Assembly (NCBI GenBank): GCA_965263055.1 | Contig: OZ253581.1 | Coordinates: 1,071,794-1,135,793, forward strand | DNA length: 64,000 nucleotides | Source of the DNA: Vicinamibacterales bacterium | GTDB lineage: Bacteria > Acidobacteriota > Vicinamibacteria > Vicinamibacterales > UBA8438 | Reading direction: 5' to 3' | In this document: in pieces, positions 36,869 through 64,000 of the stretch | Layout: each line of letters starts with the position of its first letter | Position numbering within the stretch: the stretch's first letter is position 1 | Notes under the pieces: generated by a model | What the model was told of the DNA's origin: nothing | What the model saw: the letters and a program-made list of their open reading frames with translations, nothing else | Database searches by the model: none | Program-made: the position numbers and the translations under genes

Positions 36869-36877
36869 TTTTTTTTA
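36869..36877 (-). promoter_or_regulatory. Programmed -1 frameshift slippery motif (A AAA AAA G) of the IS3 element, preceded by T giving an in-frame TAA
   Basis: Minus strand reads GCC CTC TAA AAA AAA GTT in the orfA frame. The orfB frame is CCT CTA AAA AAA AGT. Confidence 0.5.
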
Positions 36878-37300: not shown

Positions 37301-37352
37301 CCATCAAACCCTCCCCCGCCCCGACACTAATCTCAATAGGGAGGTTGTCTCA

Positions 37353-43703: not shown

Positions 43704-43804
43704 GTCCTCATCCTACACCCGGCACCATGCCGTGCGCCCTGCATGGTGCGCCGGCGTCCACGCCGGCAACCCTGGAGCCCCATCATCTACAATCCGGACA
43801 GGCC

Positions 43805-47471: not shown

Positions 47472-48247
47472 CCCGCCAGCTCCTCCCGTCGCAGCCGATC
47501 GAGATACGGACCGAATCCCTCGACGTCCAGCCAGAAGCGGAGCATGTTGGTGACGCCGCGGCTGGTCATGGTCGCCCCCGCCAGGCCGTCCACCCGGTAC
47601 GGGTCGTCCGCCGGCGGACCGGCCAGCCCCTTGATGACCGCGATCTCCGGCGTGCCGTCGGGGCCGAACGCCCTCCGCCCGTCCCAGAGCGCCTTCCAGC
47701 GCGGGTTGTCCACCTCGCCGCCGAGGCCGGGCGTCTCCTTGTGCTCGTAGTAGGTGAGGCCGCGGATCGTCTCGAGGTCGGCGTCGATCGCCACGAAGCC
47801 GTAGAGGATCCCCCAGAGGCCGAGGCCGTGAACCGGCAGCACCACCAGGTCGAGCTCGCCGTCCGCCCCGATCAGCTCGTAGACCAGCACCTCGTCCGCG
47901 ACGCGCATCAGCCCGGCGTTGTTCGGCGGCGCATCCTCGCTGAGGTCCGGGTCGGCCGCCGCGAGGCGCCCATTGAAGCCGACCGGGTCGGTGCCCGACT
48001 CCTCGCCCGTCCGGCGATCGATCACCACCTGGCGGATCGGCGCGAACCGCTCGGCGATCTGCTCCTCCGACAGCGACTCGTCCGAGTCGGCCAGACCCGC
48101 GGCGACCAGGACGTTCCGCTGCATGTCGAGCATCTGGTTCGCTTCCTGCCGGTCGCGCAGGGTGACGGCGGACGACGACACCACGATGGCGCACACAACG
48201 CAGATGATCGCAGCGAAGACCAGGTTGTAGACGACGCTACCCTGCAT
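47468..48247 (-). CDS. nqrC: Na+-NQR subunit C (FMN-binding)
   Basis: 259 aa with an N-terminal [11 protein letters not shown] and the flavinylation site [12 protein letters not shown]. Confidence 0.9.
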
Positions 48248-49460: not shown

Positions 49461-49701
49461 CGTGTGGATGCCGGCCGGCAACGGCGTGGCGTTGCTGATC
49501 GGACGTTGCTTTGTGAAAAAAGTATCAAGCGCAGGCCGAAAAAAGACCGCGGCGCAATGCCGACGGCTCTCGGCCTCCCCTCTCGGTGAATCGTAGCGTA
49601 CGGTGCGATTTTACACCACTTGACGGGACACTACCGATCCGCAACCATTGCCGCTTGTCCAGCAACCGGCGACTGCGCGGAAACACTGTTGGGAGAGCAC
49701 G

Positions 49702-52455
49702 ATGCCGATCATCAGAGACCTGCAGGAAGCGTTGAAGAACAGGCGGTCGAAGCCGGCCGATGCACTTCAGGCGGCGGTCGCAGCCGCGCAGGAGGAACGG
49801 GCTGCGTTGAGCGCGATGTTGCAGCAGATCAAGCCCCATGCTGCAAAGATGTCGAAGATTGGCGCATCGGTGAAGCAGGTGACCGAGCGCTCCTCGCGCG
49901 CGGCGGCCACATTGGAGGATTTGTCGAGCCGGCTGTCGGCGGTCGAAGCCACGACAGAGAGCGTCAAGGCCCTCGAGGGCCGAGTCCAGTCGCTCGTCGA
50001 TTCCGTCGATCGGGCGCAGCGGACGGCGCAGAATCTGCTGGCCGCTGACGGCGACCTCGCCAAGCACCGCCAAGCGATACAGCAGCTCACCAAGCAGGGG
50101 ATCGAGGCGTCCGCGAACTTCAGTGCCCTTGACAAGGAACGCGCGATTCTGAAAGGCGCTCAGGAGGAGCTGCGGCAGACGCAGGCTGTCGTGAAGGCCT
50201 CTTCCGACAAGTCGGGTACGCTCGCGGACGATCTCGACCGGCTCCGCGGGCAGGCGTCCCAGTTGCAACAGGATCACGATCGCCTGAGAGAGTCGTTGCG
50301 CAAGACGCGAGAGAACGCGGACCAGACTGCCCGGACCGCCCGCGACGTGGAGGAGCAGCTCGAACCGCTCACCCAGGTTCACGAGCTGAGCAAGACTACC
50401 GACGAACGGCTGTCTAACCTGAATGCGCTCGCCGAGCACGTGCTCAGCAAGGTGAAGTCGCTTGAGAGCCAGAGGCAGACGGTCGAGCATGCGGTGGTCG
50501 AATCGAATCGGTTGAGCGAGATGGTCTGGAAAATGGAGGTCCAGATCGGCAAGCTCGACGAGGCGAACAAGCAGGCGGCGCAGGTCGACGAGACGGCGCA
50601 ACGGATCGAGCAGGTCTCGAAGGGGATCACCGCACGTTTTGAGCAGGGGGAGAAGATCCGAGAAAGTTACACTACCAGCCTCGCAGCGCTCGAAACGGGA
50701 CGCACGGAGCTCGTCGAATTTGTCAAGGATTACACCGAGCGGCTGGCCATCGAACGTAAGACGCTGGACGGTCACGATGGGCGAGTGCGGACGCTTCAAA
50801 GCGCGCTCTCCGTGGCCGAACGCGACATCGGCAGTCTCTCCAACAAGGCCGGGGCCGTGGCGACGATGCAGCAGCGGGCCGACGATCTCGGTGGCCAGCT
50901 TGAGGGCTTTGGCGGTCGCGTGCAGCAGCTTGAGGCGCGGGCGGGCGAGCTGGAGAAGCTGGAGAAGGGCTTGAGCGGGATGGAAGCGCTGATCGAGGAG
51001 GTCGAACGTCGGCAGACGGCGTTGGCGCAGGGGCACTCGGAGCTCGACGCCCTTCGCAAGGAAGTCGACCAGTTTCACGTGGCGCACGCCGATGTCGTCA
51101 AGGCGCGGGACCAGATCAACACCGACCGGGGCGCGCTCGAGGCGTTCGTCAACCGGATAGACGAGTTCCGCCGGGGCATGCCAGCACTCGAGTCCGGCAT
51201 GGACGCGGTCAGCAAGAAGCTGTCGGTCGTCGACGAGGCAACGCAGAGAGCCGCGTCCCTGGAGACGACGGTCGACGATCTTGACAACCGGATGGCGCGC
51301 ATCGCCGATCATCAACAACTGGTCGAGAAAGTCGGTACGCGTCTGGATGGGCTCAACACACTGAGCGCTTCCGTTGACGAACGGGTTGCCGAGCAACTAA
51401 CCCGTCAGCAGGCGGTGATGGCGCTCAAGAACGAGTGCGACGGTGTCGATGTCCAGATTGATGACGCACAGAAAAAGTTGCGGAGGGTGGCCGCGCTCCA
51501 GAACACGCTCTTGCCACTGACGACCCAGGTGGCCGCGTTGAAGACGCGGATCGATGGGCTCGTAGGCGCATGCAAGGAATACGACGCCGAAAGGGCTGAC
51601 CTGACCGAGCAAGAGCGGCGCATCTCCGAAACGGCCGACCGCACCCGCGACGTGGCGACGACGGTTGACGACCAGATCCGGCGAGTCCAGGAGGCTTCGG
51701 AAGAACTCGGCCGGGTTTCGACGCTCAAGGACGAGCTGCTGCAGGAGCTGGGCCGCGCTCAGAAGCACCAACGCGACGTCAGCGCGCGCATGAAGACCGG
51801 GGATGAACAGATCAAACGAGTCGATCTGCAGCTTGTGCAGCTCGATCAGCGACATTCCCAACTGGCGTTCTCCGACAAACGGATTGCCGCGGCGGAGAAG
51901 CGGATCTCCGAACTCCAGGCCCTGGAAGAGGGCGTCGAGCGGCAGATGCAGGCCGTCATTGCGCATGGAGACGCGGTGGGCGCCGTCAAGAAGGAGATCG
52001 ACAACGTTCACCAGATCAGTCAGCAGAGCAAGACCGACCTGCAGGAGATCATCAAGCAGCGTACGCAGATCGACACGCTGCACCAACTACTCAACGCAGC
52101 AGGGAAACGCGTTGGCGAAACGGAGCGGCAAGTGGCCGCCATCGAGTCCCGCAGGGCGATGATCGGCGAGTTGCAACTCAAGACGAGCATGATCGGCAAC
52201 GTGCTGAAGGACGTGCACGTGAATCTCGAACTGCTCGCCGAGCAGCGCGCCATTGTCGATCACGCGCTCGAGGGGATGACGCGTGTGCAGGAAGACACCC
52301 GGAACGCACAGGCGACACTCAAGGCGCTTCAAGCCGAGCGACAGCTCGCCGAACGGATCGAACGCGGCATCAAGCGGCTGCGGACCGAGACGACCGCAGC
52401 GTGGACGGATGTCGAAGCACCGGGGGAAGATGCCAAGGTGCGGCGACCGGCCTGA
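49702..52455 (+). CDS. Very large all-alpha coiled-coil protein with no enzymatic motif, TM helix or signal peptide
   Basis: ATG 49702 is preceded by GGGAGAG. About 918 aa of heptad-like E/Q/R/K/L/A-rich sequence. GC is visibly lower than in the flanking genes. The long antisense ORF (49525-51396) is typical of coiled-coil coding DNA. Confidence 0.75.
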   Translation: MPIIRDLQEALKNRRSKPADALQAAVAAAQEERAALSAMLQQIKPHAAKMSKIGASVKQVTERSSRAAATLEDLSSRLSAVEATTESVKALEGRVQSLVDSVDRAQRTAQNLLAADGDLAKHRQAIQQLTKQGIEASANFSALDKERAILKGAQEELRQTQAVVKASSDKSGTLADDLDRLRGQASQLQQDHDRLRESLRKTRENADQTARTARDVEEQLEPLTQVHELSKTTDERLSNLNALAEHVLSKVKSLESQRQTVEHAVVESNRLSEMVWKMEVQIGKLDEANKQAAQVDETAQRIEQVSKGITARFEQGEKIRESYTTSLAALETGRTELVEFVKDYTERLAIERKTLDGHDGRVRTLQSALSVAERDIGSLSNKAGAVATMQQRADDLGGQLEGFGGRVQQLEARAGELEKLEKGLSGMEALIEEVERRQTALAQGHSELDALRKEVDQFHVAHADVVKARDQINTDRGALEAFVNRIDEFRRGMPALESGMDAVSKKLSVVDEATQRAASLETTVDDLDNRMARIADHQQLVEKVGTRLDGLNTLSASVDERVAEQLTRQQAVMALKNECDGVDVQIDDAQKKLRRVAALQNTLLPLTTQVAALKTRIDGLVGACKEYDAERADLTEQERRISETADRTRDVATTVDDQIRRVQEASEELGRVSTLKDELLQELGRAQKHQRDVSARMKTGDEQIKRVDLQLVQLDQRHSQLAFSDKRIAAAEKRISELQALEEGVERQMQAVIAHGDAVGAVKKEIDNVHQISQQSKTDLQEIIKQRTQIDTLHQLLNAAGKRVGETERQVAAIESRRAMIGELQLKTSMIGNVLKDVHVNLELLAEQRAIVDHALEGMTRVQEDTRNAQATLKALQAERQLAERIERGIKRLRTETTAAWTDVEAPGEDAKVRRPA

Positions 52456-52469
52456 CAGTCCCACTGGTG

Positions 52470-52585
52470 TCGACGGTCACGACGTAGCGGGTTGACGGAT
52501 TCAGCGCGGCCAGCTCCGCCTCTCCCCGCAGGTCGGTGACCGCGACGCGCGTCGTGGCGGCATCGTCGAAGTGTACTCCGCAGCG
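52470..52585 (-). pseudogene. Remnant of the 5' end of a TonB-dependent-receptor-like paralog
   Basis: 52470-52564 matches 55498-55592 with a handful of mismatches. 52559-52585 matches 55745-55769 (start codon/5'UTR). This implies an internal deletion across the shared GCATC. Confidence 0.6.
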
Positions 52586-52673
52586 TTTTCCTATCCGCGG
52601 TCCTGAGACTTCAGTTCGGGGAGGCGTGGATGGTGTTCGCGGCCCGGTTCGCGGAGATACTCTCGGAAGCCCC

Positions 52674-52907
52674 TTAGCCGAGGTAGGGTTTCGCGTCCTC
52701 GAACCGTTCGATTCCGTCTGGCGCGAACACCAGGTCAACGTCGAACCCATTGCGCATCGTCTTCTGGATGAACACGTCTGCATCCTGCGTGGTGTCCGGG
52801 AAGCCGTGGAGGATGGCTCCCGTCTTGCCGATGAACAGGTAGGTGACTCCGTGGCGATGGAAGGCGTCTCGCAGGTCCTCGACCTGCTTGTAGCTAATCG
52901 CTCCCAT
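52674..52907 (-). CDS. Small protein with minimal Pol-beta-type nucleotidyltransferase signature
   Basis: 77 aa. HGVTYLFIGKTGAILHGFPDTTQDADVFI fits the G-x(n)-D-x-D pattern. It overlaps the upstream small ORF by 14 nt. Confidence 0.4.
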   Translation of the reverse strand: MGAISYKQVEDLRDAFHRHGVTYLFIGKTGAILHGFPDTTQDADVFIQKTMRNGFDVDLVFAPDGIERFEDAKPYLG

Positions 52908-53142
52908 CGCTCCTGTAGCCCAGCCAGTCCGGCAGGTTCTCGTTGCACCAGCGGCGATAATCCGCCGTGCTCTCGAAGGATCTGTACGGCTGGTCGTCGA
53001 GCACCGGCTTGTACGTGTGGACGAAGGCGTACCGCAGGTGGAGATCGAGCGGCCGGGCGGCCGCGGCGTCGAATTCGTCTCGCCATGCGCGATTCATGTC
53101 CATATTGTGCCTCATCGGGTCAGGGTGCGGAGCGGACCTCAT
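52894..53142 (-). CDS. Small hypothetical ORF upstream of the NTase-like ORF (possible starts 53142, 53115, 53103)
   Basis: ...MDMNRAWRDEFDAAAARPLDLHLRYAFVHTYKPVLDDQPYRSFESTADYRRWCNENLPDWLGY. It is read in the same frame as the truncated receptor ORF, so coding status is uncertain. Confidence 0.3.
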   Translation of the reverse strand: MRSAPHPDPMRHNMDMNRAWRDEFDAAAARPLDLHLRYAFVHTYKPVLDDQPYRSFESTADYRRWCNENLPDWLGYRSDGSD

Positions 53143-53153
53143 GGAGCGTGACT

Positions 53154-53184
53154 TGCAATTTTGAATTTCAAATGCAAAATTGCA
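53154..53184. repeat. AT-rich inverted repeat TGCAATTTTG-N11-CAAAATTGCA (candidate operator/promoter)
   Basis: Read directly from the sequence. It is by far the most AT-rich 30-40 nt noticed in this window. It lies where receptor homology ends and just upstream of the two small ORFs. Confidence 0.6.
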
Positions 53185-53199
53185 TGATCCGCTACGTTT

Positions 53200-55747
53200 C
53201 GCTCGATCCACCCAGTTCCCACCGATCTGGAACCCTTGGCCCCAGGTGTACGACGAGCTGACCTTGAACAGATGCGCGATCGAGCCGGGCTGGACCCCCA
53301 CCTGGTGCGGCGCACGCGGGTCCAGCCAGATCACGTCGCCCTGGAAGTCGGCGTTCGAATCGGAGTTGGTGTTCCCCGTGGCGTCGCCGTAGGTGTAGGC
53401 GGCCAGCGCCTGCCAGTTGTCCCGCAGCCGCTGCCGGAACGTGAATTCCACACCCTGATAGTCCCGCCGGCCGCCGGCGAGCGTCGCGATGATGAAGTTC
53501 GACTCGGGGAAGCTGTCGTAGCCGAAACAGTCGAGGCCGAGGAAGAGCGAGTCCGGATGCTCGACCGGCCCCGGATAGGCCGTCGTGCCGTCGCCGCGGA
53601 AGGCGTACAGCGCCAGGTCGTAGTCCTCGATGATGTCGCGCGTCCGGCGCCGCGTGTACAGCGCCATGAAGCTGCGGCCCCGGCCGAGGTCCGTCTCGTA
53701 GCTCAACTGGAGGTCGTCGGTCCAGGGCGTCTTCGTGGTCGGCGCGAACAGCGCGTCGGCCTGCTGCGGCCCGCCGCGCACCCGGTACGTCACCCACTGA
53801 TCGTTCGCATACACCTGCTCTTCGCGCGTCGATCCGCTGAGGGTGCCGGCAAAGTTGGTCAGGTTGTTGCGGATCGGATCGTAGTAGCGGCCGTAGAACG
53901 CGCTGACCCGCTGCTGGCCGCGGCCCGACGGGTCGTATGACACGCTCAGGCGCGGCGCCAACGTCCAGTCGAAGGTGAAGACGTTCGAGCCGTCGGTCGC
54001 GACATGCTCGAACCGCTCGGCGCGCGCGCCAATGTTGAACGACAGGTTGTCGGTGACGTTGAACGTGTCCTGCACGAACAGGCTCAGGCCGTCCGAGCGG
54101 GTCTCCTGCGATCCCAGCGCGGTCTGCACCAGCCGGTCGTAGTTGATAGCGCCGTGCGGATTGCCGGCCGTGCTGTCAAACACCAGGCCGGCGCCCAGCT
54201 CGTCCTGCGTGATCGTGCCGTCGCGGTTCCCGTCGTACAGGGCATAGAACTCGGCCCGGTTCGCCAGCCCGTCAATGGCCCGGATGAAGCCCGTGTAGTC
54301 GCTGCTGTTCGTCGGGTCGAACTGCGTATTCGTGAAGCTGCCGGCGATCAGGCCGCCGGCCGTGAGGCCGGACAACGCCGGCGACAGCGACACGTACAAT
54401 CCGCCGTCGTAGGTGGTGTCACGGAAGTTCCTGTTCCGCATGAACTCGACCGCCGAGCTGCTCGTCCTCGAGTGTCCGCACGTCGGTGTCGCGGAAGACG
54501 ACGCTGTTGCGCGGGCCGGGCACGACCGCGAAGTCGGACACCTCCCCGTTGTGCCGGCTGTACGACCCCTCCACCAGCACGCCGCCGAACAGGCGGTTGT
54601 ACTTCAGGTGGTAGTTGTTGCCCCCCTGCACGCGGCGCCTGTCGCGTGCGTTCGTCACGTCGCGGTCGCGGCTGCCGCTGATGTCCGTCGGATCGTTCAG
54701 GAACGTGAAGCTCAGCGTGTCGGCGGTGGTCGGCGCCCAAGTGCCGCGGCCGTAGAACTGATCCTGCGTGTTCTCGACGCTGCGGATGACGTCCACCCCG
54801 TCCAGGGCGACCACCGTGTCGCTGCGCTCCAGGCGGCGGTAGCTGCCGAAAAACCACGCCTCGTTGGCCACGATCGGTCCCCCGCCGGTGACCGCCGCGT
54901 CGAAGCGCGAGAACGCCAGGTCCGCGGCGTTGCGGTTCTCGGCGACGAGGCCGTCGTTCTGAAAGAAGTAGTTGACCGAACCGCTGAACTGCTCGGTCCC
55001 GGACTTCGTGATGACGCTCGACAGCAGGCCGGGCGCGCCGACGTATTCGGCGGGTATGCCGCCGGTCAGCACCTGCTGCTCCTGGATGATCTCGGTATTG
55101 AGGTTGGCGCCGAAGGTGCCGCTCACGCCGTCGGTGACGTTGATCCCGTCGATGTAGTAGAAATTGTCGCGCGACACGCTCGTATTGCCGCCGATGTCGC
55201 TGTAGTTGAGTCCCGACTTCGACGCCGGGTTGCCGGGCGACTCCGGATCGTCCGGAAACACGCCCGGCACCAGTTGCAGATAGCTCTGGTAGGTGCGCCC
55301 CGTCGGGACCGCCTCTGTCAGGTCGAGGGTGATGTCCTCGGCCACCACCGCGCTCGTCACGTCCACCACCGGAGACGCGGCGGTCACCACCACGGTCTCG
55401 GCCACGTTGCCGGCCGTCAACGTGACCCGGGCCGACGCCGTCTGGCCCGCGCGGACCAGGAAATCTTCCTGCCGGCTCGTCTGGAATCCCTGGAGTTCGA
55501 CGGTCACGACGTAGCGAGTTAACGGATTCAGCGCGGCCAGCTCCGCCTCTCCACGCATGTCGGTGACCGCGACGCGCGTCGTGGCGGCATCCTCCGCCGC
55601 GGCGGTCACCGTGGCGCCGGGGACCGCCAGACTGTCCTGATCGGTGACGAAGACACGTATGTTCCCCGTCGTGGTGACCTGGGCGCCGGCAGATCCAGCG
55701 GCCATGGCTGCCAGCAGCACAGGCGGGACCAACCATCGACGCAGCAT
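53200..55747 (-). pseudogene. TonB-dependent-receptor-like outer-membrane protein with N-terminal CarboxypepD_reg domain; frameshifted and 3'-truncated
   Basis: Signal peptide MLRRWLVPPVLLAAMAAGSAGAQ, then TGNIRVFVTD...GATVTA...TDMRGEAELAALNPLTRYVVTVELQGFQ, then plug/barrel-like sequence. The reading frame switches between track ORFs 54419-55747 and 52894-54441. Barrel-like sequence ends at about 53200. Confidence 0.65.
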
Positions 55748-55841
55748 CGTCGAACTGTACTCCGCAGCAACCCATATGGGCGTGTCTTCAGCGCCCTGCT
55801 AGACTCACGTCGCTTACAACGACGCCAGCACCCTTGCGAGC

Positions 55842-57098
55842 ATGAGACATTGACGGGAACCACTCTCCCGGCTATCTGCCGCCGCTGGCACCCCAGCGCG
55901 TTCCGCAGCGGCTCCTGGTATTGGCTCGGAGCGGTCTCTCTGACGGTGCTCTGGTTGGCGACCGTCGGACTGGCGCCTGACGCCGGGCTCACCCGCAGCT
56001 ATTGGTATCCAGGCGACGCCGCGACCGAACCGATCCTCGACGAACGAATCATGGCCGTCGATCTAGCTTTCATCGACGAGCGAAGCCGGCCGACCCGGAA
56101 CTACCGGGTTCGCTGGCAAGGTGTGTGGTTCTCGCCGCGAGCCGAACGCGTTGACTTTTATGCAGGAGCGGACGACGGCGTCATCCTTCGAGTGGATGGC
56201 GACACCGTCCTGGAACGCAATCCAGCGCTGGGCATGCACACGGTGGCCCGAACCGTGGAGCTCGCGGCGGGAGCGCATCGGCTGGAAATCGACCACTGGC
56301 AAGACGGCGGCGCGCGGAGCTTGAATGTGCAATGGGCGCCCGCCGGCGACACCCGGGCGCCCCTGAGCCCGACTCGTCTATTCCCAGAGGATCCGGGCGC
56401 ACTCGGCTACTGGCTGCGCGTCTCCGCGATGCAATTGCCCGTCCTCGTCCTGTTGGTGTGGGCGACAGGCGTTGCGGTGCTGGCCGGGCGAACAGTCTGG
56501 CGAACCATATATCGAAGGGTCACGAGCCTGAGTCCGGACGAGCGTTGGCGCCGCCTGCGTACCGTCCTGTTTCCCGCCTTGCTCGGCCCCAGCCAGCTCC
56601 TTCTCTTCGGCCCGTGGACGGTGCACGTCACCAATCGGACCGAGTTCCTGGTGGGATTCTGGGAACTCGCATCCGGCTGGGTCTGGCTCATCGGACCCAT
56701 CGTCGGCGCCCTGATGGCACTCGGGATCGTCATGCCGGTCCGATGGTTCCGACGTTACGTAGCGGGACTTTGCGCGGTCGGGGTGCTGCTCTGGGCGCAG
56801 GGGAACCTGCTGCTCGCCGACTACGGGCTGCTGGACGGCGGCGGGCTCGACCTGGCATCGCACGCGTGGCGAACACCGTTCGAAGCCGGCTTGTGGGTGG
56901 GCGTGCTTCTTCTCGCCGTGGTATTCGCCAACATGGTCGCTCGCGTCGCGACCGTTGGGAGCGTGGTGCTGGTGACGCTACAGGCAACCGTCCTTTTGGT
57001 CCCGGTCGGCAGAGTGGCAACGGCCGACGTACCCTCAACGCCAACCGCCGAGACCGCCTGGCGGTTGCCGCCGCCAGAGATCTACGAACTCTCAAGCA
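55842..57098 (+). repeat. Direct repeat copy 1 (segmental duplication; partner 62744-64000+)
   Basis: By-eye alignment, checked at three separated points (55842/62744, 56291/63193, 57091/63993). All three give the same 6902-nt offset. Mismatches are scattered and no indels were noticed. Confidence 0.85.
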
Positions 57099-58657
57099 CG
57101 CGCAACCTCATCCACATCGTGCTCGACATGTTCCCGTCAGATACGTTCGCCGACATCCTGGACGCCGACCGTTCCGCCTTCGATCGTGACTGGCCCGGTT
57201 TCACGTTCTTCGCCAATCACCTCGGCGTCCATCGAACCACGAGGGGCTCCATGCCCGCGATGCTCTCGGGCGTCGCCTTTCGTAACGAGATGCCGTTCCG
57301 CGAGTTCCTCGCTCGCCATCCATCCGTCTTCCACGCACTCGGCCAGCAAGGCTATCGACTCCGATCGGCGACCTCCATCAGTAGCGACCATCCGAACCCG
57401 TCGTTCTCCGGGGTCGACGCCGCGATCCGATACGACATCCCGACGCCTTACGGCAGCTACCGTGACTATGTCGATGTCGCGACAGCGCAATTGCTGGACC
57501 TATCGCTGTTTCGGCACGCGCCGCACCCATTCAAGCCTGGCATCTACCGTGATCGGCAATGGTTCTTCCAACAGCAGATCGAGTCGCGCCGGGGACCGGC
57601 GGCGACAGCGGAGCGGCCCTTTGGAGACACCGCGTTTCTGCGTGAGTTCGCCAATCGGATCACCCGAGGCGTCGACGCGCCGGTGTACACGCTCCTCCAC
57701 GTGATTACGCCGCACCCGCCGGTCGTGACGGACGCGGACTGCGCGTACGCGCTTAATCGGACGCCCACTGCGGGAGACTTCGCGAACCAGGCACGGTGCG
57801 CCTTGTCAGTGGTCCAGACGCTGCACCATCGACTTCGGTCCCTCGATCTCTACGACCGAAGCGCCATCATCGTCACCTCCGACCACGGACTGAACCTCCT
57901 GCCTGAAGATCAGCATCCATTGCGCCATATGAGATCGCCGGCCGGGGTAACTTTCGCCAAGATCGAGCCTGACGCCACCCCTGTGCTCCTGGTTAAGCCG
58001 GTCGACGCCCGTGGTCCGCTGCAGATCTCGTACGCTCCCACCTCGATTACCGACGTGCCCGCCACTCTGCTCGACCTCGCAGGCCTCCCCGACACTCTGG
58101 GACGTGGCACGTCGGTACTCAGGATGGATCCAGCAGCCTCCCGGCAGCGCACATATGCACACCATGAGCCAGGCGACAGCCCGGATCCTTTCTACGATGC
58201 TCTCTACGTGTTCGCTGTCAACGGGCGGGTCACCGACCCAGATGCCTGGAGCTATCACCGGTCGGTATTCGGGCCCACGGATGATCGCGCAGCGCAACGC
58301 CGAGAGCATCAGATCGGATTGTCTGCAGATCCGGATGACACGGCAACCCAGTCTGGCACTCCCATCTACCGGACCGACGGATACGCGGTCTTTTACGCGG
58401 CGGCCGAGAACTCGCGCGTTACGTTCGATGTCCGCAGGATACCGGCCATGGCCGCTGCCCAGACGGTGACCGTGCGGATCGACGGCGACATCGTTGACCA
58501 ACAGCTACTCGCGGACGACGCTTGGCACACGCTCTCATACCCGGTCGAGGCGCGGTCTTCCGAAGACAGCCCGTTCTGCATCGAGTTGCTGACGAGTCCG
58601 GTCTGGTACGACGCAACAGGCGAGTCCTACGGTCTGATGCTGCGGGGCGACATCTGA
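55850..58657 (+). CDS. PA14-domain + polytopic membrane + alkaline-phosphatase/sulfatase-superfamily (LtaS/MdoB-like) protein
   Basis: 935 aa with a TTG start and an N-terminal TM. PA14-like: NYRVRWQGVWFSP..DFYAGADDGVILRVDGDTV...HRLEIDHWQDGGARSLNVQW. Several TM helices follow. Sulfatase-fold motifs are IHIVLDMFPSD, HRTTRGSMPAMLSG and IIVTSDHG. There is an extra C-terminal domain of about 200 aa. Confidence 0.7.
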   Translation: MTGTTLPAICRRWHPSAFRSGSWYWLGAVSLTVLWLATVGLAPDAGLTRSYWYPGDAATEPILDERIMAVDLAFIDERSRPTRNYRVRWQGVWFSPRAERVDFYAGADDGVILRVDGDTVLERNPALGMHTVARTVELAAGAHRLEIDHWQDGGARSLNVQWAPAGDTRAPLSPTRLFPEDPGALGYWLRVSAMQLPVLVLLVWATGVAVLAGRTVWRTIYRRVTSLSPDERWRRLRTVLFPALLGPSQLLLFGPWTVHVTNRTEFLVGFWELASGWVWLIGPIVGALMALGIVMPVRWFRRYVAGLCAVGVLLWAQGNLLLADYGLLDGGGLDLASHAWRTPFEAGLWVGVLLLAVVFANMVARVATVGSVVLVTLQATVLLVPVGRVATADVPSTPTAETAWRLPPPEIYELSSTRNLIHIVLDMFPSDTFADILDADRSAFDRDWPGFTFFANHLGVHRTTRGSMPAMLSGVAFRNEMPFREFLARHPSVFHALGQQGYRLRSATSISSDHPNPSFSGVDAAIRYDIPTPYGSYRDYVDVATAQLLDLSLFRHAPHPFKPGIYRDRQWFFQQQIESRRGPAATAERPFGDTAFLREFANRITRGVDAPVYTLLHVITPHPPVVTDADCAYALNRTPTAGDFANQARCALSVVQTLHHRLRSLDLYDRSAIIVTSDHGLNLLPEDQHPLRHMRSPAGVTFAKIEPDATPVLLVKPVDARGPLQISYAPTSITDVPATLLDLAGLPDTLGRGTSVLRMDPAASRQRTYAHHEPGDSPDPFYDALYVFAVNGRVTDPDAWSYHRSVFGPTDDRAAQRREHQIGLSADPDDTATQSGTPIYRTDGYAVFYAAAENSRVTFDVRRIPAMAAAQTVTVRIDGDIVDQQLLADDAWHTLSYPVEARSSEDSPFCIELLTSPVWYDATGESYGLMLRGDI

Positions 58658-58791
58658 CGCGACCCTCAACCCGCGCTGACCTGGGCGAGCGCGGCTTGAG
58701 CTGGGCGAAAGCCAATCCTGACAGATCCCCGAGCTGTCTCCGCCCGCCCAACAGTTAACATTGTCCGGCACGACACAGGGCCGAAGACGCG

Positions 58792-59211
58792 ATGAGCCTG
58801 GCAGACGCGCGCTGGATCGACATTCGCCACAACGACGACGCGCGGGGAACGCTGACGGCGCTGGAAGGCGACGAACTTCCGTTTCCGGTCCGGCGGGTTT
58901 TCTACATGCACGGCGTGCCGGAGGGTGGCGAGCGCGGCGCGCATGCGCACCGCTACACGCAGCAGTGCCTGATCGCGGTGGCGGGCGCGTTCACGGTCGA
59001 TTTGTCGGACGGCGCGGCCACGGCCACCTACGTCCTCGACGATCCGAACCGCGCCCTCTATCTGCCGGTCATGACCTGGGCGCACCTGCGCAACTTCCTG
59101 CCCGACACGGTGGCGCTGGCCCTCTGCGATACGGTCTACAATCCGGCCCACGTCGTCCGTTCGTGGGACGAATACCGCCGGCTGGTTCAGGAGATGTCAC
59201 CTACCCCATGA
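58792..59211 (+). CDS. WxcM/FdtA-like cupin (NDP-4-keto-6-deoxyhexose 3,4-ketoisomerase-like)
   Basis: 139 aa, DDARGTLTALEGDELPFPVRRVFYMHGVPEGGERGAHAHRYTQQCLIAVAGAF.V.L.DG, the typical FdtA cupin pattern. Confidence 0.75.
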   Translation: MSLADARWIDIRHNDDARGTLTALEGDELPFPVRRVFYMHGVPEGGERGAHAHRYTQQCLIAVAGAFTVDLSDGAATATYVLDDPNRALYLPVMTWAHLRNFLPDTVALALCDTVYNPAHVVRSWDEYRRLVQEMSPTP

Positions 59212-60644
59212 GCGGCGCGCAGCCCATCGAGAGCGCGGACCGGCCCGGATTCCTGGCCTCGGCCCTGTCCGCCGAAGGCCGCTTCTCCGACGTCTCCGCC
59301 GCCCGCCGCTGGCTGCACGAGCGCCGCCGGACGCAGCGGTGCCACGTCGAACGGATCCCGTTCGCGGCTCTGCGGGGATGGTGCTTCGAGCCGGACTCCG
59401 GTGACCTCACGCACGACTCGGGACACTTCTTCCGCGTGCAGGGCGTCCGGGCCCGGTCCGACTTCCCCGCCCCCCTCCGTTTCGAGCAGCCGATCGTCAA
59501 CCAGCCCGAGATCGGCGTCCTCGGCATCCTCGCCAAGCGCTTCGACGGCGTCCTGCATTTTCTGCTTCAGGCCAAGATGGAACCGGGCAACATCGACCTC
59601 GTCCAGTTGTCGCCTACGGTCCAGGCGACGCGGAGCAACTACACGCGCGTGCACGGCGGCAAGCGCCCGCGCTATCTCGACTTCTTCCTGCGGCGCGGTG
59701 TCAACCGCGTGCTGGTGGATCAGCTCCAGTCCGAGCAGGGGCTCTTCTTCCTGCGCAAGCGCAACCGGAACATCATCGTGGAGACCCGCGAGGACGTCCC
59801 GCTCCACAACGACTTCCACTGGCTGACGCTCGGGCAGATCAAGAGGCTGATGCAGGAACCGCACACTGTCAACATGGACACCCGCACGGTGATTGCGGCC
59901 GTCCCGCTGGTGGGCGGCGGGGGCGAGGCGCCGGCCGCCGGCAGCCCGCCCCAGCCCGCCGCAGGCAGCTTCGGAGAGGCGCTCATCGCATCGACGCTGG
60001 CCCGGGACGAGGGATGCCAGCCGATCGAGGCAGTGCTGAGTTGGCTGACCGAGATTCGCGCGTGCGCCGAAATCGACTGCCAGCCGTGCGGGCTGAGCAG
60101 CGTGCCGGGGTGGGAGCGCGACGCGCACGAGCTGCGCCAGCGCGACGGCCGGTACTTCCGGGTCTTCGGGGTCGAGGTGGAATCGGACGCCCGCAAGGTG
60201 CCGGGGTGGACGCAGCCGATGGTCCAGCCGGTGGAGACGGGCATCGCCGCCTTCGTCACGCGGCGCATCGGCGGCCTGCTGCACTTCCTGGTGCAGGCGC
60301 GCATGGAACCGGGCGTCTGGAACCTGATCGAGCTCGGTCCGACCGTGCAGTGGCTGCCCGGCGTCCCGACCGACAAAGATCAGGCGCCTTACCTGCTGGA
60401 GGAGGTCATCACCGGGGCCGCGGGCGTCGTCCGGCACCGCTCGACCCAGTGCGAGGAGGGGGGACGCTTCTACCGGTACGCCACCGAGAACATCATCCTC
60501 GAGCTGGACCCGGTCGACGACCGGCCGGCGCCGCCGAACTACACCTGGGTCACCCTCAGCCAACTGAACACGCTGATCCGCTACGGCAACCATTTGAACA
60601 TCGAGGCCCGCAGCGTGCTCGCCTGTCTCGACGTCCAAGGCTAG
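59208..60644 (+). CDS. NDP-hexose 2,3-dehydratase (EvaA/TylX3-type, duplicated domain)
   Basis: ATG 59208 is in ATGA overlap with the upstream stop. Two repeats of the pattern EIGVLGILAKRFDGVLHFLLQAKMEPGN / GIAAFVTRRIGGLLHFLVQARMEPGV are present. It also has SEQGLFFLRKRNRNIIVE...DFHWLTLGQIKRLM...VNMDTRTV. Confidence 0.8.
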   Translation: MSGAQPIESADRPGFLASALSAEGRFSDVSAARRWLHERRRTQRCHVERIPFAALRGWCFEPDSGDLTHDSGHFFRVQGVRARSDFPAPLRFEQPIVNQPEIGVLGILAKRFDGVLHFLLQAKMEPGNIDLVQLSPTVQATRSNYTRVHGGKRPRYLDFFLRRGVNRVLVDQLQSEQGLFFLRKRNRNIIVETREDVPLHNDFHWLTLGQIKRLMQEPHTVNMDTRTVIAAVPLVGGGGEAPAAGSPPQPAAGSFGEALIASTLARDEGCQPIEAVLSWLTEIRACAEIDCQPCGLSSVPGWERDAHELRQRDGRYFRVFGVEVESDARKVPGWTQPMVQPVETGIAAFVTRRIGGLLHFLVQARMEPGVWNLIELGPTVQWLPGVPTDKDQAPYLLEEVITGAAGVVRHRSTQCEEGGRFYRYATENIILELDPVDDRPAPPNYTWVTLSQLNTLIRYGNHLNIEARSVLACLDVQG

Positions 60645-60651
60645 CCACGCC

Positions 60652-61626
60652 GTGCACCTGCTGTTCCTCGGCTATTCCAGCATCGTCCGGCGGCGCGTGC
60701 TGCCCGCCGCACGGTCCGTCCCCGCGATCCGTCGCGTCTCGGTCGCCTCGCGCAGCCAGGGGCGGGACGGGGCGGAGGCCCGCGCCGAGGGCGATGGCAC
60801 GGTTGACCGCTGGCATTCGGACTACGACGAAGCACTCGCCTCCGCCGCGGCCGATCTGGTCTACGTGTCGGGCGCCAACGCGGACCACGCGGAGTGGGTG
60901 ATGCGCGCCCTCGGTCACGGCTGCCACGTCATCGTGGACAAGCCCGCGTTCCTGGACCTAGAGACCGCCGAGGCGGCGGTGCGCCTCGCGCGGGAGCAGA
61001 ACCGGGGCCTGGCCGAGGCGACGGTCTTCCTGTTCCACCCGCAGGCGGCGGCGCTGCGCGCGCTCGTCGACCCGGCCGAGTCGCCTGTCACCCGCGCCAC
61101 CGCCACGTTCTCGTTTCCGCCGCTGCCGCCGGGCGACTTCCGCTACCGCGCCGACCTCGGCGGCGGCAGCCTCTACGACCTCGGCCTCTACGCCGCGGCG
61201 ACGAACCGGCTGCTGTTCGGCGCCGCCCCGGACGACGTGCACTGCAAGGTCCTCTCGCAGCATACCTCGCCAGACGCCGGCGTCGACACGTCGTTCAGCG
61301 TGCTGCTGACCCACAGCGACGGCGGATCCCTGGTGGGCCATTTCGGCTTCGTCACGGCGTATCAGAACCGGCTGTCCGTGGTGACCCGCTCCCGGACCAT
61401 CGATGCGGATCGCCTATTCACGACACCGCCGGACCTGGCGTGCACGCTGCGAGTGCGCGAGGGGCACGACGACCACGCCGTGCCAGTGGCGCCGGGCGAC
61501 GCCTTCGCGCTCTTTCTCGAAGCGTTCGTCGACGCGACAAAGCGGCGCGAGTTCGGCCCCTTCGAACGCGCCCTGCTGGACGACGCCGCGCTGATCGCCC
61601 GCCTGCGCCGGGCGGCCGGGCTCTAG
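60652..61626 (+). CDS. Gfo/Idh/MocA-family oxidoreductase (candidate NDP-hexose C3-ketoreductase)
   Basis: 324 aa with a Rossmann N-terminus LLFLGYSSIVRRRVLPA and HAEWVMRALGHGCHVIVDKP (EKP-like motif). The functional assignment comes from context with the 2,3-dehydratase. Confidence 0.6.
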   Translation: MHLLFLGYSSIVRRRVLPAARSVPAIRRVSVASRSQGRDGAEARAEGDGTVDRWHSDYDEALASAAADLVYVSGANADHAEWVMRALGHGCHVIVDKPAFLDLETAEAAVRLAREQNRGLAEATVFLFHPQAAALRALVDPAESPVTRATATFSFPPLPPGDFRYRADLGGGSLYDLGLYAAATNRLLFGAAPDDVHCKVLSQHTSPDAGVDTSFSVLLTHSDGGSLVGHFGFVTAYQNRLSVVTRSRTIDADRLFTTPPDLACTLRVREGHDDHAVPVAPGDAFALFLEAFVDATKRREFGPFERALLDDAALIARLRRAAGL

Positions 61627-61630
61627 GACC

Positions 61631-62737
61631 ATGGCGATCCAGGTCTGGGACTACCGGGCGGAGTACGAGGCGGAGCGGGAGGATCTCCTCGCCGCCGTGG
61701 ATCAGGTGGCGCGCTCGGGACGCCTGATCCTCGGCGAGAGCGTCCAAAGCTTCGAGCGCGAGCTGGCGGCGTACTGCGGCGCCGGGCACGGGGTCGGCGT
61801 GGGCAGCGGCACCGATGCGCTGGTGCTGGCGCTGCGGGCGCTCGACCTACAGCCGGGCGACGAAGTGATCACTACGTCGAATACCGCCATCCCGACCGTG
61901 TCGGCCATCGTCACTGCGGGCGGGACGCCCCGCTTCGTGGACATCGAACGAGACACCTACCTGATGGACGTATCGCAGCTCGACGCGGCCATCACGGAAA
62001 GGACCCGATGCATCATCCCGGTGCACCTCTTCGGGCAGTGCGTGGCGATGGACCGCGTGCGGGCGGCAGTCGAGCGCCGCGGAATTGTGGTGCTCGAAGA
62101 CTGCGCGCAGAGCACCGGGGCAAAGCAGGCGGGGCGCGGCGCGGGCTCGCTGTCAGACATTGCGGCGTTCTCGTTCTACCCCACCAAGGTCCTCGGCGGC
62201 TACGGCGACGGCGGCATGGTGGTCACCTCGGACGAGGGGCTCGCCACGCGCGTACGGCGGCTCCGAATGTACGGCACCGAGGGACGCTACTTTGCCGAGG
62301 AACACGGCTACAACTCGCGGCTCGACGAGCTGCACGCAGAAATCCTCCGGCGGAAGCTCCGGCGCCTCGACGTGTACATCGAAAGGCGTCGCGGGTTCGC
62401 GCGCCGCTACGACGCGGCGCTCCGGGACTCCGGCCTGCTGCTGCCGGTCACCGCGCCCGGGAACCACCACGTCTACTACCTCTACGTCGTGCGACATCCG
62501 GCCCGCGATGCGATCCTGCAGGAACTGGCCGCGCGGGACATCCTGGTCAACGTCAGCTACCGGTGGCCCATCCACACGATGCCGGCCTACTCGCACCGCG
62601 GCTATCCGGAAGGTTCGTTGCCCGAGACCGAGCAGGCGGCACGGGAGATCTTCTCGCTGCCCATGTATCCTTCGCTGACGGACGCCGAACAAGATCGCGT
62701 TTGCGAGGGGTTGCACGAGATTCTGCCTCGCTCGTAG
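61631..62737 (+). CDS. DegT/DnrJ/EryC1/StrS-family PLP-dependent sugar aminotransferase
   Basis: 368 aa: ILGESVQSFERELAAYCGAGHGVGVGSGTDAL, IPVHLFGQ, and FSFYPTKVLGGYGDGG (PLP Lys). Confidence 0.9.
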   Translation: MAIQVWDYRAEYEAEREDLLAAVDQVARSGRLILGESVQSFERELAAYCGAGHGVGVGSGTDALVLALRALDLQPGDEVITTSNTAIPTVSAIVTAGGTPRFVDIERDTYLMDVSQLDAAITERTRCIIPVHLFGQCVAMDRVRAAVERRGIVVLEDCAQSTGAKQAGRGAGSLSDIAAFSFYPTKVLGGYGDGGMVVTSDEGLATRVRRLRMYGTEGRYFAEEHGYNSRLDELHAEILRRKLRRLDVYIERRRGFARRYDAALRDSGLLLPVTAPGNHHVYYLYVVRHPARDAILQELAARDILVNVSYRWPIHTMPAYSHRGYPEGSLPETEQAAREIFSLPMYPSLTDAEQDRVCEGLHEILPRS

Positions 62738-62743
62738 ATTCGG

Positions 62744-64000
62744 ATGAGACCTTGACGGGAACCACTCTCCTGACTATCTGCCGCCGCTGGTACCCCAGCT
62801 CGTTCCGCGCAGGCTCCTGGTATTTGCTCGGAGCGGTCTCACTGACGTTGTTCTGGTTGGCGACCATCGTACTGGCGCCTGATACCGGGCTCACGCGCAG
62901 CTATTGGTATCCAGCCGACGCCGCGACCGAACCGATCATTGAGGAACGAGTCACGGCCGTCGATCTGGCGTTCATCGACGAGCGAAGCCGGCCGACCCGG
63001 AACTACCGGGTTCGCTGGCGGGGTGTGTGGTTCTCGCCGCGAGCCGAACGCGTTGACTTTCATGCAGGAGCCGACGACGGCGTCATCCTTCGAGTGGACG
63101 GCGACACCATCCTGGAACGCAATCCAGCGGTGGGCATGCATACGACGGCGCGCACCGTGGAGCTTGCGGCAGGAGTGCATCGGCTGGAAATCGACCACTG
63201 GCAAGACGGCGGCGCGCGGAGCCTGGATCTGCAATGGGCGCCCGCCGGCGACACTCCGGCGCCCCTTAACCCGACTCGCCTATTCCCAGAGGATCCGGGC
63301 GCACTGGGCTACTGGCTGCGCTTCGCCGCGATGCGATTGTCCGTGCTCGTCCTGCTGGTCTGGGCGACAGGCGTTGCGGTGCTGGTCGGGCGAACAGTCT
63401 GGCGAACAATCTATCGAAGGGTCACGATCCCGAGCCCGGAGGAGATTCGGCGCCGCCTGCGCGCCATACTGTTCCCTGCGGCGCTCGGCCCCAGCCAGCT
63501 CCTTCTCTTCGGCCCGTGGACGGTGCACGAGACCAACCGGACCGAGTTCCTGGTGGGGTTCTGGGAACTCGCATCCGGCTGGGTCTGGCTCATCGGACCC
63601 GTCGTCGGCACCCTAGCGACACTCGGCATCGTCATGCCGGCCAGGTGGTTCCCACGGTACGTAGCGGGACTCTGCGCGGTCGGGGTGCTGCTCTGGGCGC
63701 AGGGGAACCTGCTACTCGCCGACTACGGGCTACTGGATGGCAGCGGGCTCGACCTGGCATCCCACGCGTGGCGAATGCCGTTCGAAGCCGGCCTATGGAT
63801 CTGTGTACTCCTTCTCGCCGTGGTATTCGCCGACATGGTCGCTCGCGTAGCGCCCGTCGCGTGCGTGGCGCTGGTGGCGCTACAGGCAACCGTCCTCTTG
63901 GTCCCGGTCGGCAGAGTGGCAACAACCGACGTACCCTCGACGCCAACCGCCGAGACCGTTTGGTGGTTGCCGCCGCCAGAGATCTACGAACTCTCAAGCA
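62744..64000 (+). repeat. Direct repeat copy 2 (continues beyond the window)
   Basis: See copy 1. Confidence 0.85.
62752..64000 (+). CDS. Second PA14 + polytopic (+ presumably sulfatase) protein, paralog of 55850-58657; partial, runs off the window
   Basis: TTG 62752 sits in the same context as the first copy. Manual translation gives LTGTTLLTICRRWYPSSFRAGSWY...NYRVRWRGVWFSP...HRLEIDHWQDGGARSLDLQW...PPPEIYELSS. It is colinear with copy 1 at a constant offset of 6902 nt. Confidence 0.75.
   Translation, partial: MTGTTLLTICRRWYPSSFRAGSWYLLGAVSLTLFWLATIVLAPDTGLTRSYWYPADAATEPIIEERVTAVDLAFIDERSRPTRNYRVRWRGVWFSPRAERVDFHAGADDGVILRVDGDTILERNPAVGMHTTARTVELAAGVHRLEIDHWQDGGARSLDLQWAPAGDTPAPLNPTRLFPEDPGALGYWLRFAAMRLSVLVLLVWATGVAVLVGRTVWRTIYRRVTIPSPEEIRRRLRAILFPAALGPSQLLLFGPWTVHETNRTEFLVGFWELASGWVWLIGPVVGTLATLGIVMPARWFPRYVAGLCAVGVLLWAQGNLLLADYGLLDGSGLDLASHAWRMPFEAGLWICVLLLAVVFADMVARVAPVACVALVALQATVLLVPVGRVATTDVPSTPTAETVWWLPPPEIYELSS

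Follow-up and report, generated by a model that had tools for sequence, protein, structure and literature searches.

We analyzed a 64-kb stretch of contig OZ253581.1 (68% GC; hereafter the window), whose closest genomes are metagenome-assembled genomes (MAGs) of Vicinamibacterales, Acidobacteriota. At its right end, four genes predicted to make a deoxy-aminosugar (the cassette) lie between two long direct repeats, each of which carries a paralogue of the same large membrane protein gene (copy 1, a type A paralogue, and copy 2, type B; Table 1). A first-pass annotation of the window had recognized this order, and Pfam and PDB matches uphold its reading of the cassette. Most of the overlapping open reading frames (ORFs) listed for the window are spurious because of the 68% GC content; GC at third codon positions picks out the genes used here. 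The window ends inside copy 2, and the rest of that gene was read from a 30-kb ENA contig (ERZ25068833:ctg54148; L001) that is 100% identical to window positions 51631-64000, reaches 1.9 kb beyond the window end and stops 370 nt past copy 2. The source genome was assembled from long reads at low coverage (4x); the ENA and NCBI records do not differ and are unlikely to be independent of each other. We compared the locus with the Vicinamibacterales loci L002-L015 and L043. Below, P denotes a paralogue of the copy-1/copy-2 family and TBDR a TonB-dependent receptor; haplotypes with paralogues ahead of the cassette are class I, and a right junction coupled to the aminotransferase (DegT) gene, as in L011 and L014, is class II.

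Table 1 Features of the paralogue-cassette-paralogue locus, its surroundings and related membrane proteins. TM, transmembrane; NDP, nucleoside diphosphate; PLP, pyridoxal phosphate.
Feature	Sequence	Position	Strand	Remarks
Class I leader, ~50 nt	window	55791..55841	+	upstream of copy 1, outside the repeat common to both copies
Repeat copy 1	window	55842..58674	+	gene 55850-58657, 935 aa, TTG start, type A
FdtA/QdtA-type NDP-hexose 3,4-ketoisomerase	window	58792..59211	+	139 aa; Pfam FdtA E 3.3e-35; PDB 7n67, 2pa7 (FdtA) E 1e-17 to 1e-21
EvaA-type NDP-hexose 2,3-dehydratase	window	59208..60644	+	478 aa; Pfam Hexose_dehydrat E 7e-140; EvaA 4j7g E 5e-117
GFO/IDH/MocA-family NDP-sugar 3-ketoreductase	window	60652..61626	+	324 aa; Pfam; best PDB match KijD10 3rbv E 2.3e-31
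DegT-family PLP sugar aminotransferase	window	61631..62737	+	368 aa; Pfam E 2e-109; top PDB match 7b0d E 5.5e-96
Repeat copy 2	window	62744..64000 (runs off window)	+	TTG 62752; stop at window-equivalent 65571; type B
TM1	copy-1 protein	aa 24-42		hydropathy, profile
PA14	copy-1 protein	~aa 45-180		hydropathy, profile
Multi-pass TM block	copy-1 protein	aa 185-385		hydropathy, profile
Alkaline-phosphatase-fold catalytic domain	copy-1 protein	~aa 410-790		
Beta-sandwich	copy-1 protein	aa 791-935		145 aa
TBDR-like outer-membrane protein gene	window	52894..55747	-	Pfam CarboxypepD_reg, OMP_b-brl_4, TonB_dep_Rec_b-barrel
All-coiled-coil protein	window	49648-52455	+	935 aa; weak, sub-threshold Pfam matches; 99% identity in L014
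TM+PA14 membrane protein	L004	6815-9262		
TM+PA14 membrane protein	L005	4158-6416		
TM+PA14 membrane proteins	L006	1674-4037, 4138-6363		
TM+PA14 membrane protein	L002	4461-6647		

The two copies align without gaps over 1257 nt (55842-57098 against 62744-64000) at a constant offset of 6902 nt, with 122 mismatches (90.3% identity; 41, 25 and 55 at codon positions 1, 2 and 3). The offset, the mismatch rate of about one in ten and the lack of indels reported in the first-pass annotation were thus confirmed. Upstream of the copies, similarity over 200 nt is no more than random (30% identity), so the repeat truly starts at 55842, 8 nt before each TTG start codon. This sharp edge arises because copy 1 is preceded by a class I leader and copy 2 by a junction with the 3' end of the DegT gene. 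Over the whole gene, homology extends for 2852 alignment columns (85.2% identity, 13 gap columns) and stops ~17 nt past the stop codon. Copy 2 could have been a truncated remnant, but on L001 it is a complete ORF of 939 aa (copy 1, 935 aa). The proteins share 81% amino acid identity with four gap positions. Overall synonymous divergence (dS) between the copies is 0.32 and non-synonymous divergence (dN) 0.109, giving a dN/dS of 0.34, and both copies are therefore under purifying selection.

Both genes begin with TTG, as had been noted, in the context ATGAGAC(A/C)TTGACG (55842-55852 and 62744-62754). At the same start, the relatives L043 and L009 read ATGAGACATTTGGTGGCG, encoding M-R-H-L-V-A. 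TTG must act as the start in both copies because the ancestral ATG is out of frame (ATG AGA CAT TGA). This 1-nt-shorter start variant is common to both copies, L011 and L014, and is another sign of a common sequence pool.

The four cassette enzymes have clear family assignments. Below its best match, the aminotransferase is similar to DesV (2oga, E 1.8e-86), QdtB (3frk, E 1.5e-77) and WbpE, and it appears closest to C-3 aminotransferases; no NCBIfam model matched the FdtA protein or the dehydratase. Our analyses predict that the cassette starts from dTDP-4-keto-6-deoxyglucose and yields a dTDP-3-amino-2,3,6-trideoxyhexose. The route would run through 2,3-dehydration, 3-keto reduction, 3,4-keto isomerisation and C-3 transamination. 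Genes for the supply of the starting sugar (rmlA and rmlB) were absent from the ORFs scanned in window 33-64 kb. The genes are tightly packed, with exactly the spacings given in the first-pass annotation: the first two overlap in an ATGA at 59208, the next intervals measure 7 nt (60644 to 60652) and 4 nt (61626 to 61631), and the copy-2 TTG (62752) follows the aminotransferase stop (62737) after 14 nt. Given this last spacing, copy 2 is probably co-transcribed with the cassette. No sigma-70-like promoter sites were found in L001 3900-14311, where the terminator-like sites were within ~2 standard deviations of the shuffle mean and all intragenic. Rfam and tRNA scans of window 50-64 kb returned nothing.

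The cassette and the paralogues differ in conservation and distribution. Cassette proteins are ~90-95% identical across the Vicinamibacterales genomes compared. When clustered at 90% identity, the dehydratase fell into a cluster of 136 members and the FdtA protein into one of 146, and each paralogue was a singleton. A dehydratase-based metagenome scan recovered the same four genes in the same order on contigs of unrelated bacteria with 26-69% GC (L019-L042, for example L031 9568-13445 and L026 9122-13454; dehydratase identity 34-74%), with no paralogue within flanks of up to 10 kb. On one low-GC contig, the neighbours of the cassette are those of a typical glycan cluster and include genes for a UDP-GlcNAc 2-epimerase, a cytidylyltransferase and an ABC transporter; on a 66%-GC contig, genes for a methyltransferase and a YfhO-like GT-C protein follow the cassette. 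The scan returned no close Vicinamibacterales relatives (maximum 74% identity) and hence no additional cases of synteny. Paralogues, in turn, occur without sugar genes, so the association is lineage-specific and not obligatory. By this distribution the cassette is an independent module, far more conserved and widespread than the paralogues. Within Vicinamibacterales, the cassette abuts a paralogue in all ten cassette-bearing loci, a sample biased by its retrieval (nine through a paralogue query and L001 via the aminotransferase).

The paralogues belong to a family with more than 120 homologues of ~930 aa at 54-84% identity, and the few named ones are labelled 'sulfatase-like hydrolase/transferase [Acidobacteria bacterium]'. 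The catalytic domain of copy 1 matches Pfam Sulfatase (PF00884, E 1.2e-9). This generic model was the sole Pfam match to the catalytic domain, EptA_B_N and DUF1705 were not detected, and no NCBIfam model matched the paralogues at E <= 1e-3. Pfam PA14 scored 25.1 bits in copy 2, above the gathering threshold of 24, and 16.6 bits in copy 1, below it. A single-sequence search found the domain against PDB 6qdi (E 8.9e-10), and a family profile built from 64 homologues matched the RsgI3 PA14 domain (PDB 6qe7) at E 2.6e-13. By the same profile, the best catalytic-domain sequence match in PDB was LtaS (E 7.8e-8 over aa 589-762). Since NCBIfam gave no match and LtaS was reached by profile alone, the paralogues form a distinct family within the superfamily. 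On this sequence evidence we place them as a separate family in the LtaS/EptA/OpgB/PbgA group, with an added PA14 module.

The AlphaFold model has helices across aa 183-383 followed by a well-folded domain at aa 410-935 (pLDDT ~85). The top Foldseek match was full-length PbgA/YejM (6xlp, E 3e-10, 677 aligned columns), followed by S1 sulfatases (E ~1e-9), phosphonate monoester hydrolases and LtaS. For aa 1-400 the model is poor, so hydropathy was used for the topology. Hydrophobic segments lie at aa 24-42, 193-211, 277-295, 304-322, 346-364 and 366-384, with a weaker one at ~236-254. Since one transmembrane helix precedes PA14 and about six separate it from the catalytic domain, the two domains should be on the same side of the membrane; we predict an N-in helix with both domains in the periplasm.

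The first-pass annotation had called these proteins PA14-sulfatases. The profile match supports the PA14 half of the label, borderline in copy 1 by Pfam, and the active site contradicts the other half. The formylglycine motif C/S-x-P-x-R is absent: the equivalent segment reads H-R-T-T-R-G-S-M-P-A-M-L-S-G, it has no Cys, its S-M-P-A-M stretch has no Arg, and S467 is outside the conserved columns. T464 is instead invariant in the 64 homologues, and we reject a type I (formylglycine) sulfatase. D426, D678 and H679 are also invariant; the metal-ligand Asp and Asp-His, like the alkaline-phosphatase fold, are superfamily-wide and therefore not diagnostic. The family 'hrTT' aligns over 'GKT' of Listeria LtaS (4uoo), in a low-scoring stretch that makes this evidence at the level of a motif. 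We take the 'GKT' motif to hold the nucleophilic Thr of LtaS.

Similar N-terminal modules were seen in other proteins of the relatives, which encode 730-815-aa membrane proteins with a TM+PA14 module of ~30% identity to paralogue aa 18-182 (Table 1). In L005 and in the second of the two L006 proteins, this module is joined to a PMT_2 (GT-C)-like region that scores 20-23 bits, below the Pfam cut-off of 26.1. From these sequences, PA14 seems to be a common 'handle' of several kinds of periplasmic glycan-modifying enzymes in Vicinamibacterales. The nearby PA14+PMT_2 proteins would fit a periplasm-facing enzyme set that uses lipid-linked donors on glycoconjugates.

The divergence between the copies is uneven along the gene, from 10% in the 5' half to 25% in the core. 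Their dS is 0.14 in codons 1-200, 0.22 in codons 201-420, 0.53 in the catalytic core (codons 421-790) and 0.32 in codons 791-935. The core of copy 2 has a dS of 0.07-0.13 to the relatives' paralogues L011_1, L002_2 and L010_3, and its termini have 0.15-0.38 to the same genes. In 150-nt windows, nt 1186-2358 of copy 2 are 91-99% identical to those three paralogues and 71-88% identical to copy 1. Past nt ~2359 the best matches become copy 1 and L013_2, with up to 95% identity to copy 1; within this 3' stretch, one region reaches 99% identity and contains an 82-nt perfect tract to copy 1 at window 58363. The C-terminus of copy 1 is 97% identical in amino acids to L013_2 (dS 0.06; core dS 0.38), and the best-matching relative of copy 1 changes every 150 nt.

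The same pattern recurs among the relatives. L010_2 and L010_3 have a dS of 0.00 in codons 1-200 and 0.55 in the core, and L002_1 and L010_1 have 0.01 in the core and 0.21 in the N-terminus. In the core tree, copy 2 clusters with P0024, P0037, P0032 and P0044. When cores are ranked, copy 1 is tenth among the 63 comparators of copy 2, and copy 2 is 36th among those of copy 1; in the C-terminus tree, however, the sequence nearest to copy 2 is copy 1. Judged from these comparisons, the catalytic cores fall into discrete conserved types, at least A, B and B'. Flanking them, segments of ~1.2 kb (5') and ~0.45 kb (3') have been exchanged repeatedly by gene conversion, within and between genomes.

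This mosaic bears on the origin of the two copies, for which the first-pass annotation had proposed duplication of one gene with capture of the sugar module between the duplicates. The 90% identity of the first 1.26 kb and the coincidence of repeat edges with gene ends agree with a recent tandem or segmental duplication of this kind. The core is decisive: its dS is 0.53 between the copies and 0.07-0.13 between copy 2 and its orthologues elsewhere, each of the two core types has near-identical orthologues in other genomes, and the copies are therefore not a recent duplication. Their leaders are also unrelated, each being common to a different haplotype class, and the cassette predates the paralogue family and is found more widely. 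We give next to no weight to this origin and drop the capture scenario.

In the relatives, the interval that holds the paralogues is bounded by the nqr operon, with or without a TBDR gene, on one side and by Uma2, a family 2 glycosyltransferase (GT2) and UDP-glucose dehydrogenase (Ugd) on the other. Between these flanks, paralogues number one to three, and the cassette is before, between or after them or is absent. The layouts are P-P-cassette-GT2-GT2-Ugd in L009 and L043 (in L043, the DegT stop overlaps the GT2 start), P-P-cassette in L002, P-X-P-cassette in L003, (fragment)-P-cassette in L007 and L008, and IS-P-P-P-AAA(DUF4143)-cassette in L010, where IS is an insertion sequence. L011 reads TBDR-cassette-B-A, L013 P-P-Uma2-GT2-Ugd, and L015 P-AAA-P-IS66-Ugd without the cassette. 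In L014, a closed 4.14-Mb genome, the cassette is followed by one P and then by Uma2. The left flank of L014 matches window 47955-52471 at 99.3% identity, most of its receptor gene is deleted, copy 1 is missing, and its cassette and next paralogue are 86.5% identical to the window. The search for synteny therefore found the same parts in other orders and numbers; the order A-cassette-B was seen in the window genome and in none of 10 other cassette-bearing or same-flank loci.

In three relatives, an AAA_14/DUF4143 ATPase gene or fragment (L010 11370-12608, L015 12936-14174, L014 5507-5986) is inserted between paralogues or between paralogues and cassette. The window has no such gene.

The junctions tie the two copies to different haplotypes. 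The leader GCGCCCTGCTAGACTCA...GCGAGC upstream of copy 1 also precedes both paralogue starts in L043 and the second in L009, and the copy-2 junction between DegT and paralogue is the same in L011 and L014. The second paralogue of L011 bears a duplicated ~55 nt of the DegT 3' end, a sequence feature we read as the footprint of unequal recombination. About 290 nt past the copy-2 stop is the start of the GT2 gene that directly follows DegT in L043 and L009. As L001 ends 370 nt past copy 2, this neighbour is inferred from 79 nt of homology.

The window thus pairs a class I left junction with a class II right junction, as would be expected if the assembly were a chimera in which two co-occurring strain haplotypes were joined within the conserved cassette, an order existing in no cell. 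The 4x coverage of the ENA contig, the identity of the ENA and NCBI records and a split receptor ORF that may be a sequencing error would be in keeping with such a join. However, a simple join predicts A-B-cassette-B-A-Uma2, whereas copy 1 abuts the cassette and copy 2 precedes the class I GT2 start, so that at least two further joins would be needed. Both paralogue ORFs and the four cassette ORFs are intact, and the 6.9-kb unit is within ordinary long-read length. Per-gene identities to relatives gave no clear pattern that would mark a class I/class II breakpoint inside the cassette. We consider a chimera improbable.

Direct repeats of 2.8 kb in the same orientation, with ten perfect tracts of 39-82 nt, could also serve a programmed or high-frequency loop-out, as the first-pass annotation had suggested: RecA recombination would remove the cassette and leave one chimeric paralogue, turning a surface modification off in a subpopulation. 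Recombination among paralogues clearly occurs in this lineage, as the gene-conversion mosaics and at least six arrangements in close relatives attest, and the cassette-less haplotype L015 exists. The notion of a recombination-prone structure was therefore sound. The predicted loop-out product was not found: no locus of the form TBDR-single chimeric paralogue-GT2 was present in L002-L015 or L043, and a single chimera without cassette occurred in 0 of 11 same-flank loci. L015 is not this product, since it keeps two paralogues, an AAA gene and IS66. Sequence divergence cuts the rate of homologous recombination by orders of magnitude; the copies differ by 10% (5' half) to 25% (core), and their 85.2% overall identity falls short of the near-identical repeats of a phase-variable switch, with 82 nt as the longest perfect tract. 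The deletion would also be irreversible and is therefore not a switch. Loop-out deletion between the copies is mechanistically possible; a reversible on/off switch is unsupported, and we put little stock in a programmed loop-out.

We favor, with a confidence only a little better than even, a hypervariable locus for surface glycans in which homologous recombination shuffles the genes of the modifying enzymes, with paralogues that act as lipid-donor phosphotransferases and a cassette that supplies an amino sugar. In this model, the paralogue Thr nucleophile would take a phospho-substituent from a membrane lipid donor, as in LtaS, GacH, EptA, OpgB or BcsG, and pass it on to a surface glycan that the PA14 and beta-sandwich domains would hold. 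Different catalytic-core types may give different decorations or acceptor specificities. Homologies at the gene ends would drive unequal recombination, changing the copy number between one and three and moving or removing the cassette. A-cassette-B would be one such haplotype, in which copy 1 has a stand-alone leader and copy 2 is coupled to DegT. The variation may reflect diversification of the surface between strains, driven for instance by phages or predators, with no programmed switch.

A more specific version, which we regard as doubtful, makes the conserved 5' (TM-PA14-TM) and 3' (beta-sandwich) segments recombination handles through which Vicinamibacterales would swap discrete catalytic cores of an undescribed, PA14-anchored family of LtaS-like transferases within and between genomes. 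This would amount to a modular and recombinase-free combinatorial diversification of glycan decoration, on a glycan that contains the unusual 3-amino-2,3,6-trideoxy sugar.

For the function of the paralogues, a serious alternative is that they are hydrolases tethered to the membrane on its periplasmic side, acting as phosphatase, phosphodiesterase or sulfatase and gaining nutrients from environmental glycans that PA14 binds; their place beside the cassette would then be incidental. Acidobacteria are polysaccharide degraders, a TBDR gene is adjacent, and the Pfam Sulfatase match and the Foldseek matches to many carbohydrate sulfatases (E ~1e-9) fit such a role, as does the occurrence of the family without glycan genes in L016-L018. 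Against it, the proteins have no C/S-x-P-x-R motif and carry an invariant Thr aligned with the LtaS 'GKT'. A transmembrane block of six helices, such as theirs, points to a lipid-donor transferase and would be atypical for a tethered hydrolase. The tight 14-nt junction to the sugar operon occurs in three genomes, sibling PA14+GT-C proteins are found nearby in relatives, and the cassette abuts a paralogue at every cassette-bearing locus of the biased sample described above. On balance, we hold scavenging hydrolases to be unlikely, although less so than the chimera or the switch.

Several points weigh against lipid-donor phosphotransferases at a surface-glycan locus. The donor, acceptor and product in this model are all predictions. 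The best fold match, PbgA/YejM, acts chiefly in regulation or binding rather than as a transferase, and the AlphaFold model has pLDDT <50 for most of aa 1-400, with low confidence for PA14. Distant paralogue-family members are found singly or as tandem genes in unrelated contexts without glycan or sugar genes (L016, L017 and L018), often beside IS elements or integrases; the link of the paralogues to the cassette and to glycans is therefore circumstantial. No Wzx/Wzy, ABC exporter, chain-length regulator or initiating transferase was found in the window upstream or in the 10-kb flanks of relatives. The upstream genes of the window are housekeeping genes (nqr, purH, selA, apbE), and the flanks of relatives carry only GT2, GT1/GT4, methyltransferase and Ugd genes. 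Finally, the exact gene order comes from a 4x long-read assembly whose two public records are probably not independent of each other.

The TBDR-like gene to the left is a conserved flank, in the same place beside paralogues in L009, L011 and L043. In the window it is split into ORFs 52894-54441 and 54419-55747 (442 and 515 aa), which overlap by 23 nt at 54419-54441. The orthologue is intact in L011 (1075 aa) and also split in L009 and L043 (336 + 574 aa). The split is either a real frameshift, making a pseudogene, or a long-read indel error in low-coverage assemblies. A 98-nt direct repeat with 95% identity lies at 52470-52567 and 55497-55594, its second copy within the CarboxypepD_reg-coding 5' part of the receptor gene and its first right after the stop of the coiled-coil gene. 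Its placement suggests that the first copy is what remains of another receptor gene, since deleted. In L014 this 98-nt remnant is still present (97% identity), with most of the receptor gene lost.

The coiled-coil protein is also exactly 935 aa long and was considered as a third paralogue. It is unrelated, and we rejected it, the length match being coincidental. Its position is taken in L009, L011 and L043 by a gene for 596-625 aa, a homologue of which is at window 26796-28949 (~87% nucleotide identity). Farther upstream, two integrase-core (rve/rve_3) transposase genes on opposite strands (35694-37772) represent IS elements ~18 kb from the locus, and IS or integrase genes also border paralogues in L010, L015, L017 and L018. 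A 508-aa Sulfotransfer_3 protein (E 1.8e-16) is encoded at 33572-35098 (+). A GC-rich palindrome resembling repetitive extragenic palindromic (REP) elements, (A/T)TGCCGGCCTGGAGGCCGGCGCACC, occurs at 21337-21361, 28854-28878 and 43745-43769, three window matches against none expected from shuffles. It is also found in L001 at ~14064-14089, just past copy 2, and is intergenic in several related loci. A tRNA cluster at 2794-4751 (-) has five genes (Trp, Thr, Gly, Tyr, Thr), and tRNA-Gln is at 16029-16102 (-), in a housekeeping context.

Acidobacteria are among the most abundant soil bacteria, and to our knowledge almost nothing has been established about their envelope glycans or the strain variation of these. 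We found no description of the PA14-sulfatase-like family or of this locus in the literature searched, in agreement with the first-pass annotation, which did not recognize the combination as a described system. The paralogues offer a clean natural case of mosaic evolution, with discrete cores and homogenised ends. The cassette is a compact, highly conserved, widespread and apparently uncharacterised operon for a predicted 2-deoxy-3-amino sugar in a cell-surface context, recurring at 26-69% GC; 2-deoxy-3-amino sugar chemistry is usually tied to antibiotic biosynthesis. We see the locus as a lead for glycobiology and for studies of phages and hosts in soil. It is no new class of genetic element and brings no paradigm change.

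Compared with known systems, the paralogues share with LtaS-family enzymes, including GacH, an N-terminal membrane domain with several passes and, after it, an extracytoplasmic domain of alkaline-phosphatase fold, and with LtaS itself the Thr aligned to 'GKT' and the Asp and Asp-His metal ligands. Streptococcal GacH is encoded within a glycan biosynthesis cluster and decorates a side-chain sugar (bioRxiv 10.1101/337519); the paralogue genes are likewise inside a glycan biosynthesis cluster. Unlike LtaS of S. aureus and Listeria, to which they are ~15% identical, the paralogues have no family-level match in NCBIfam or Pfam. They add an N-terminal TM+PA14 module and a 145-aa C-terminal beta-sandwich (~935 aa against ~650 aa), and they occur as one to three mosaic paralogues in a Gram-negative Acidobacterium. 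PbgA/YejM, EptA/MCR-1, OpgB and BcsG also combine an inner-membrane TM bundle with a periplasmic sulfatase-fold domain. Enzymes of the EptA/MCR-1, OpgB and BcsG type modify lipid A, periplasmic glucans or cellulose via phospholipid donors. None of these proteins has PA14, and the TM-scores of the PbgA group to the paralogue are low (0.24-0.36), with the TM part of the model unreliable.

As a locus, the interval resembles O-antigen, capsule and exopolysaccharide loci in its conserved flanks (99.3% between the window and L014) around a region that is 86.5% identical or absent, and in its IS elements, gene remnants, sugar-nucleotide genes and GT2 glycosyltransferases. It departs from O-antigen and capsule loci in lacking, within the 10-kb flanks, the export, polymerization, chain-length and initiation genes named above. 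Here the modifying-enzyme paralogues vary and the sugar-synthesis genes are the most conserved. Each cassette enzyme has a characterised structural homologue in the actinomycete EvaA, KijD10 and DesV pathways or in the FdtA/QdtB Fuc3N/Qui3N route, and the chemistry of each step in those pathways is established. In contrast to the actinomycete pathways, no polyketide or natural-product cluster surrounds the cassette, and its product is predicted from families. The literature searched held no description of the four-enzyme combination as a compact operon in a cell-envelope context. Mosaic surface-protein families provide the closest parallel for the history of the paralogues: their ends are homogenised by gene conversion, their central types are discrete, and their copy number and order vary between strains. 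They differ in that this locus has no silent cassettes, dedicated recombinase or invertase, or evidence of within-clone switching, and all copies here appear to be full-length, expressed enzymes. The parts of the locus are thus all of known kinds, namely a variable glycan locus, an LtaS-like superfamily, sugar-nucleotide enzyme families and concerted evolution, and A-cassette-B represents one variant of a locus type that is common and does not amount to a conserved system. What is new beside these systems is the fusion of PA14 to an LtaS/PbgA-like membrane enzyme, an uncharacterised architecture.

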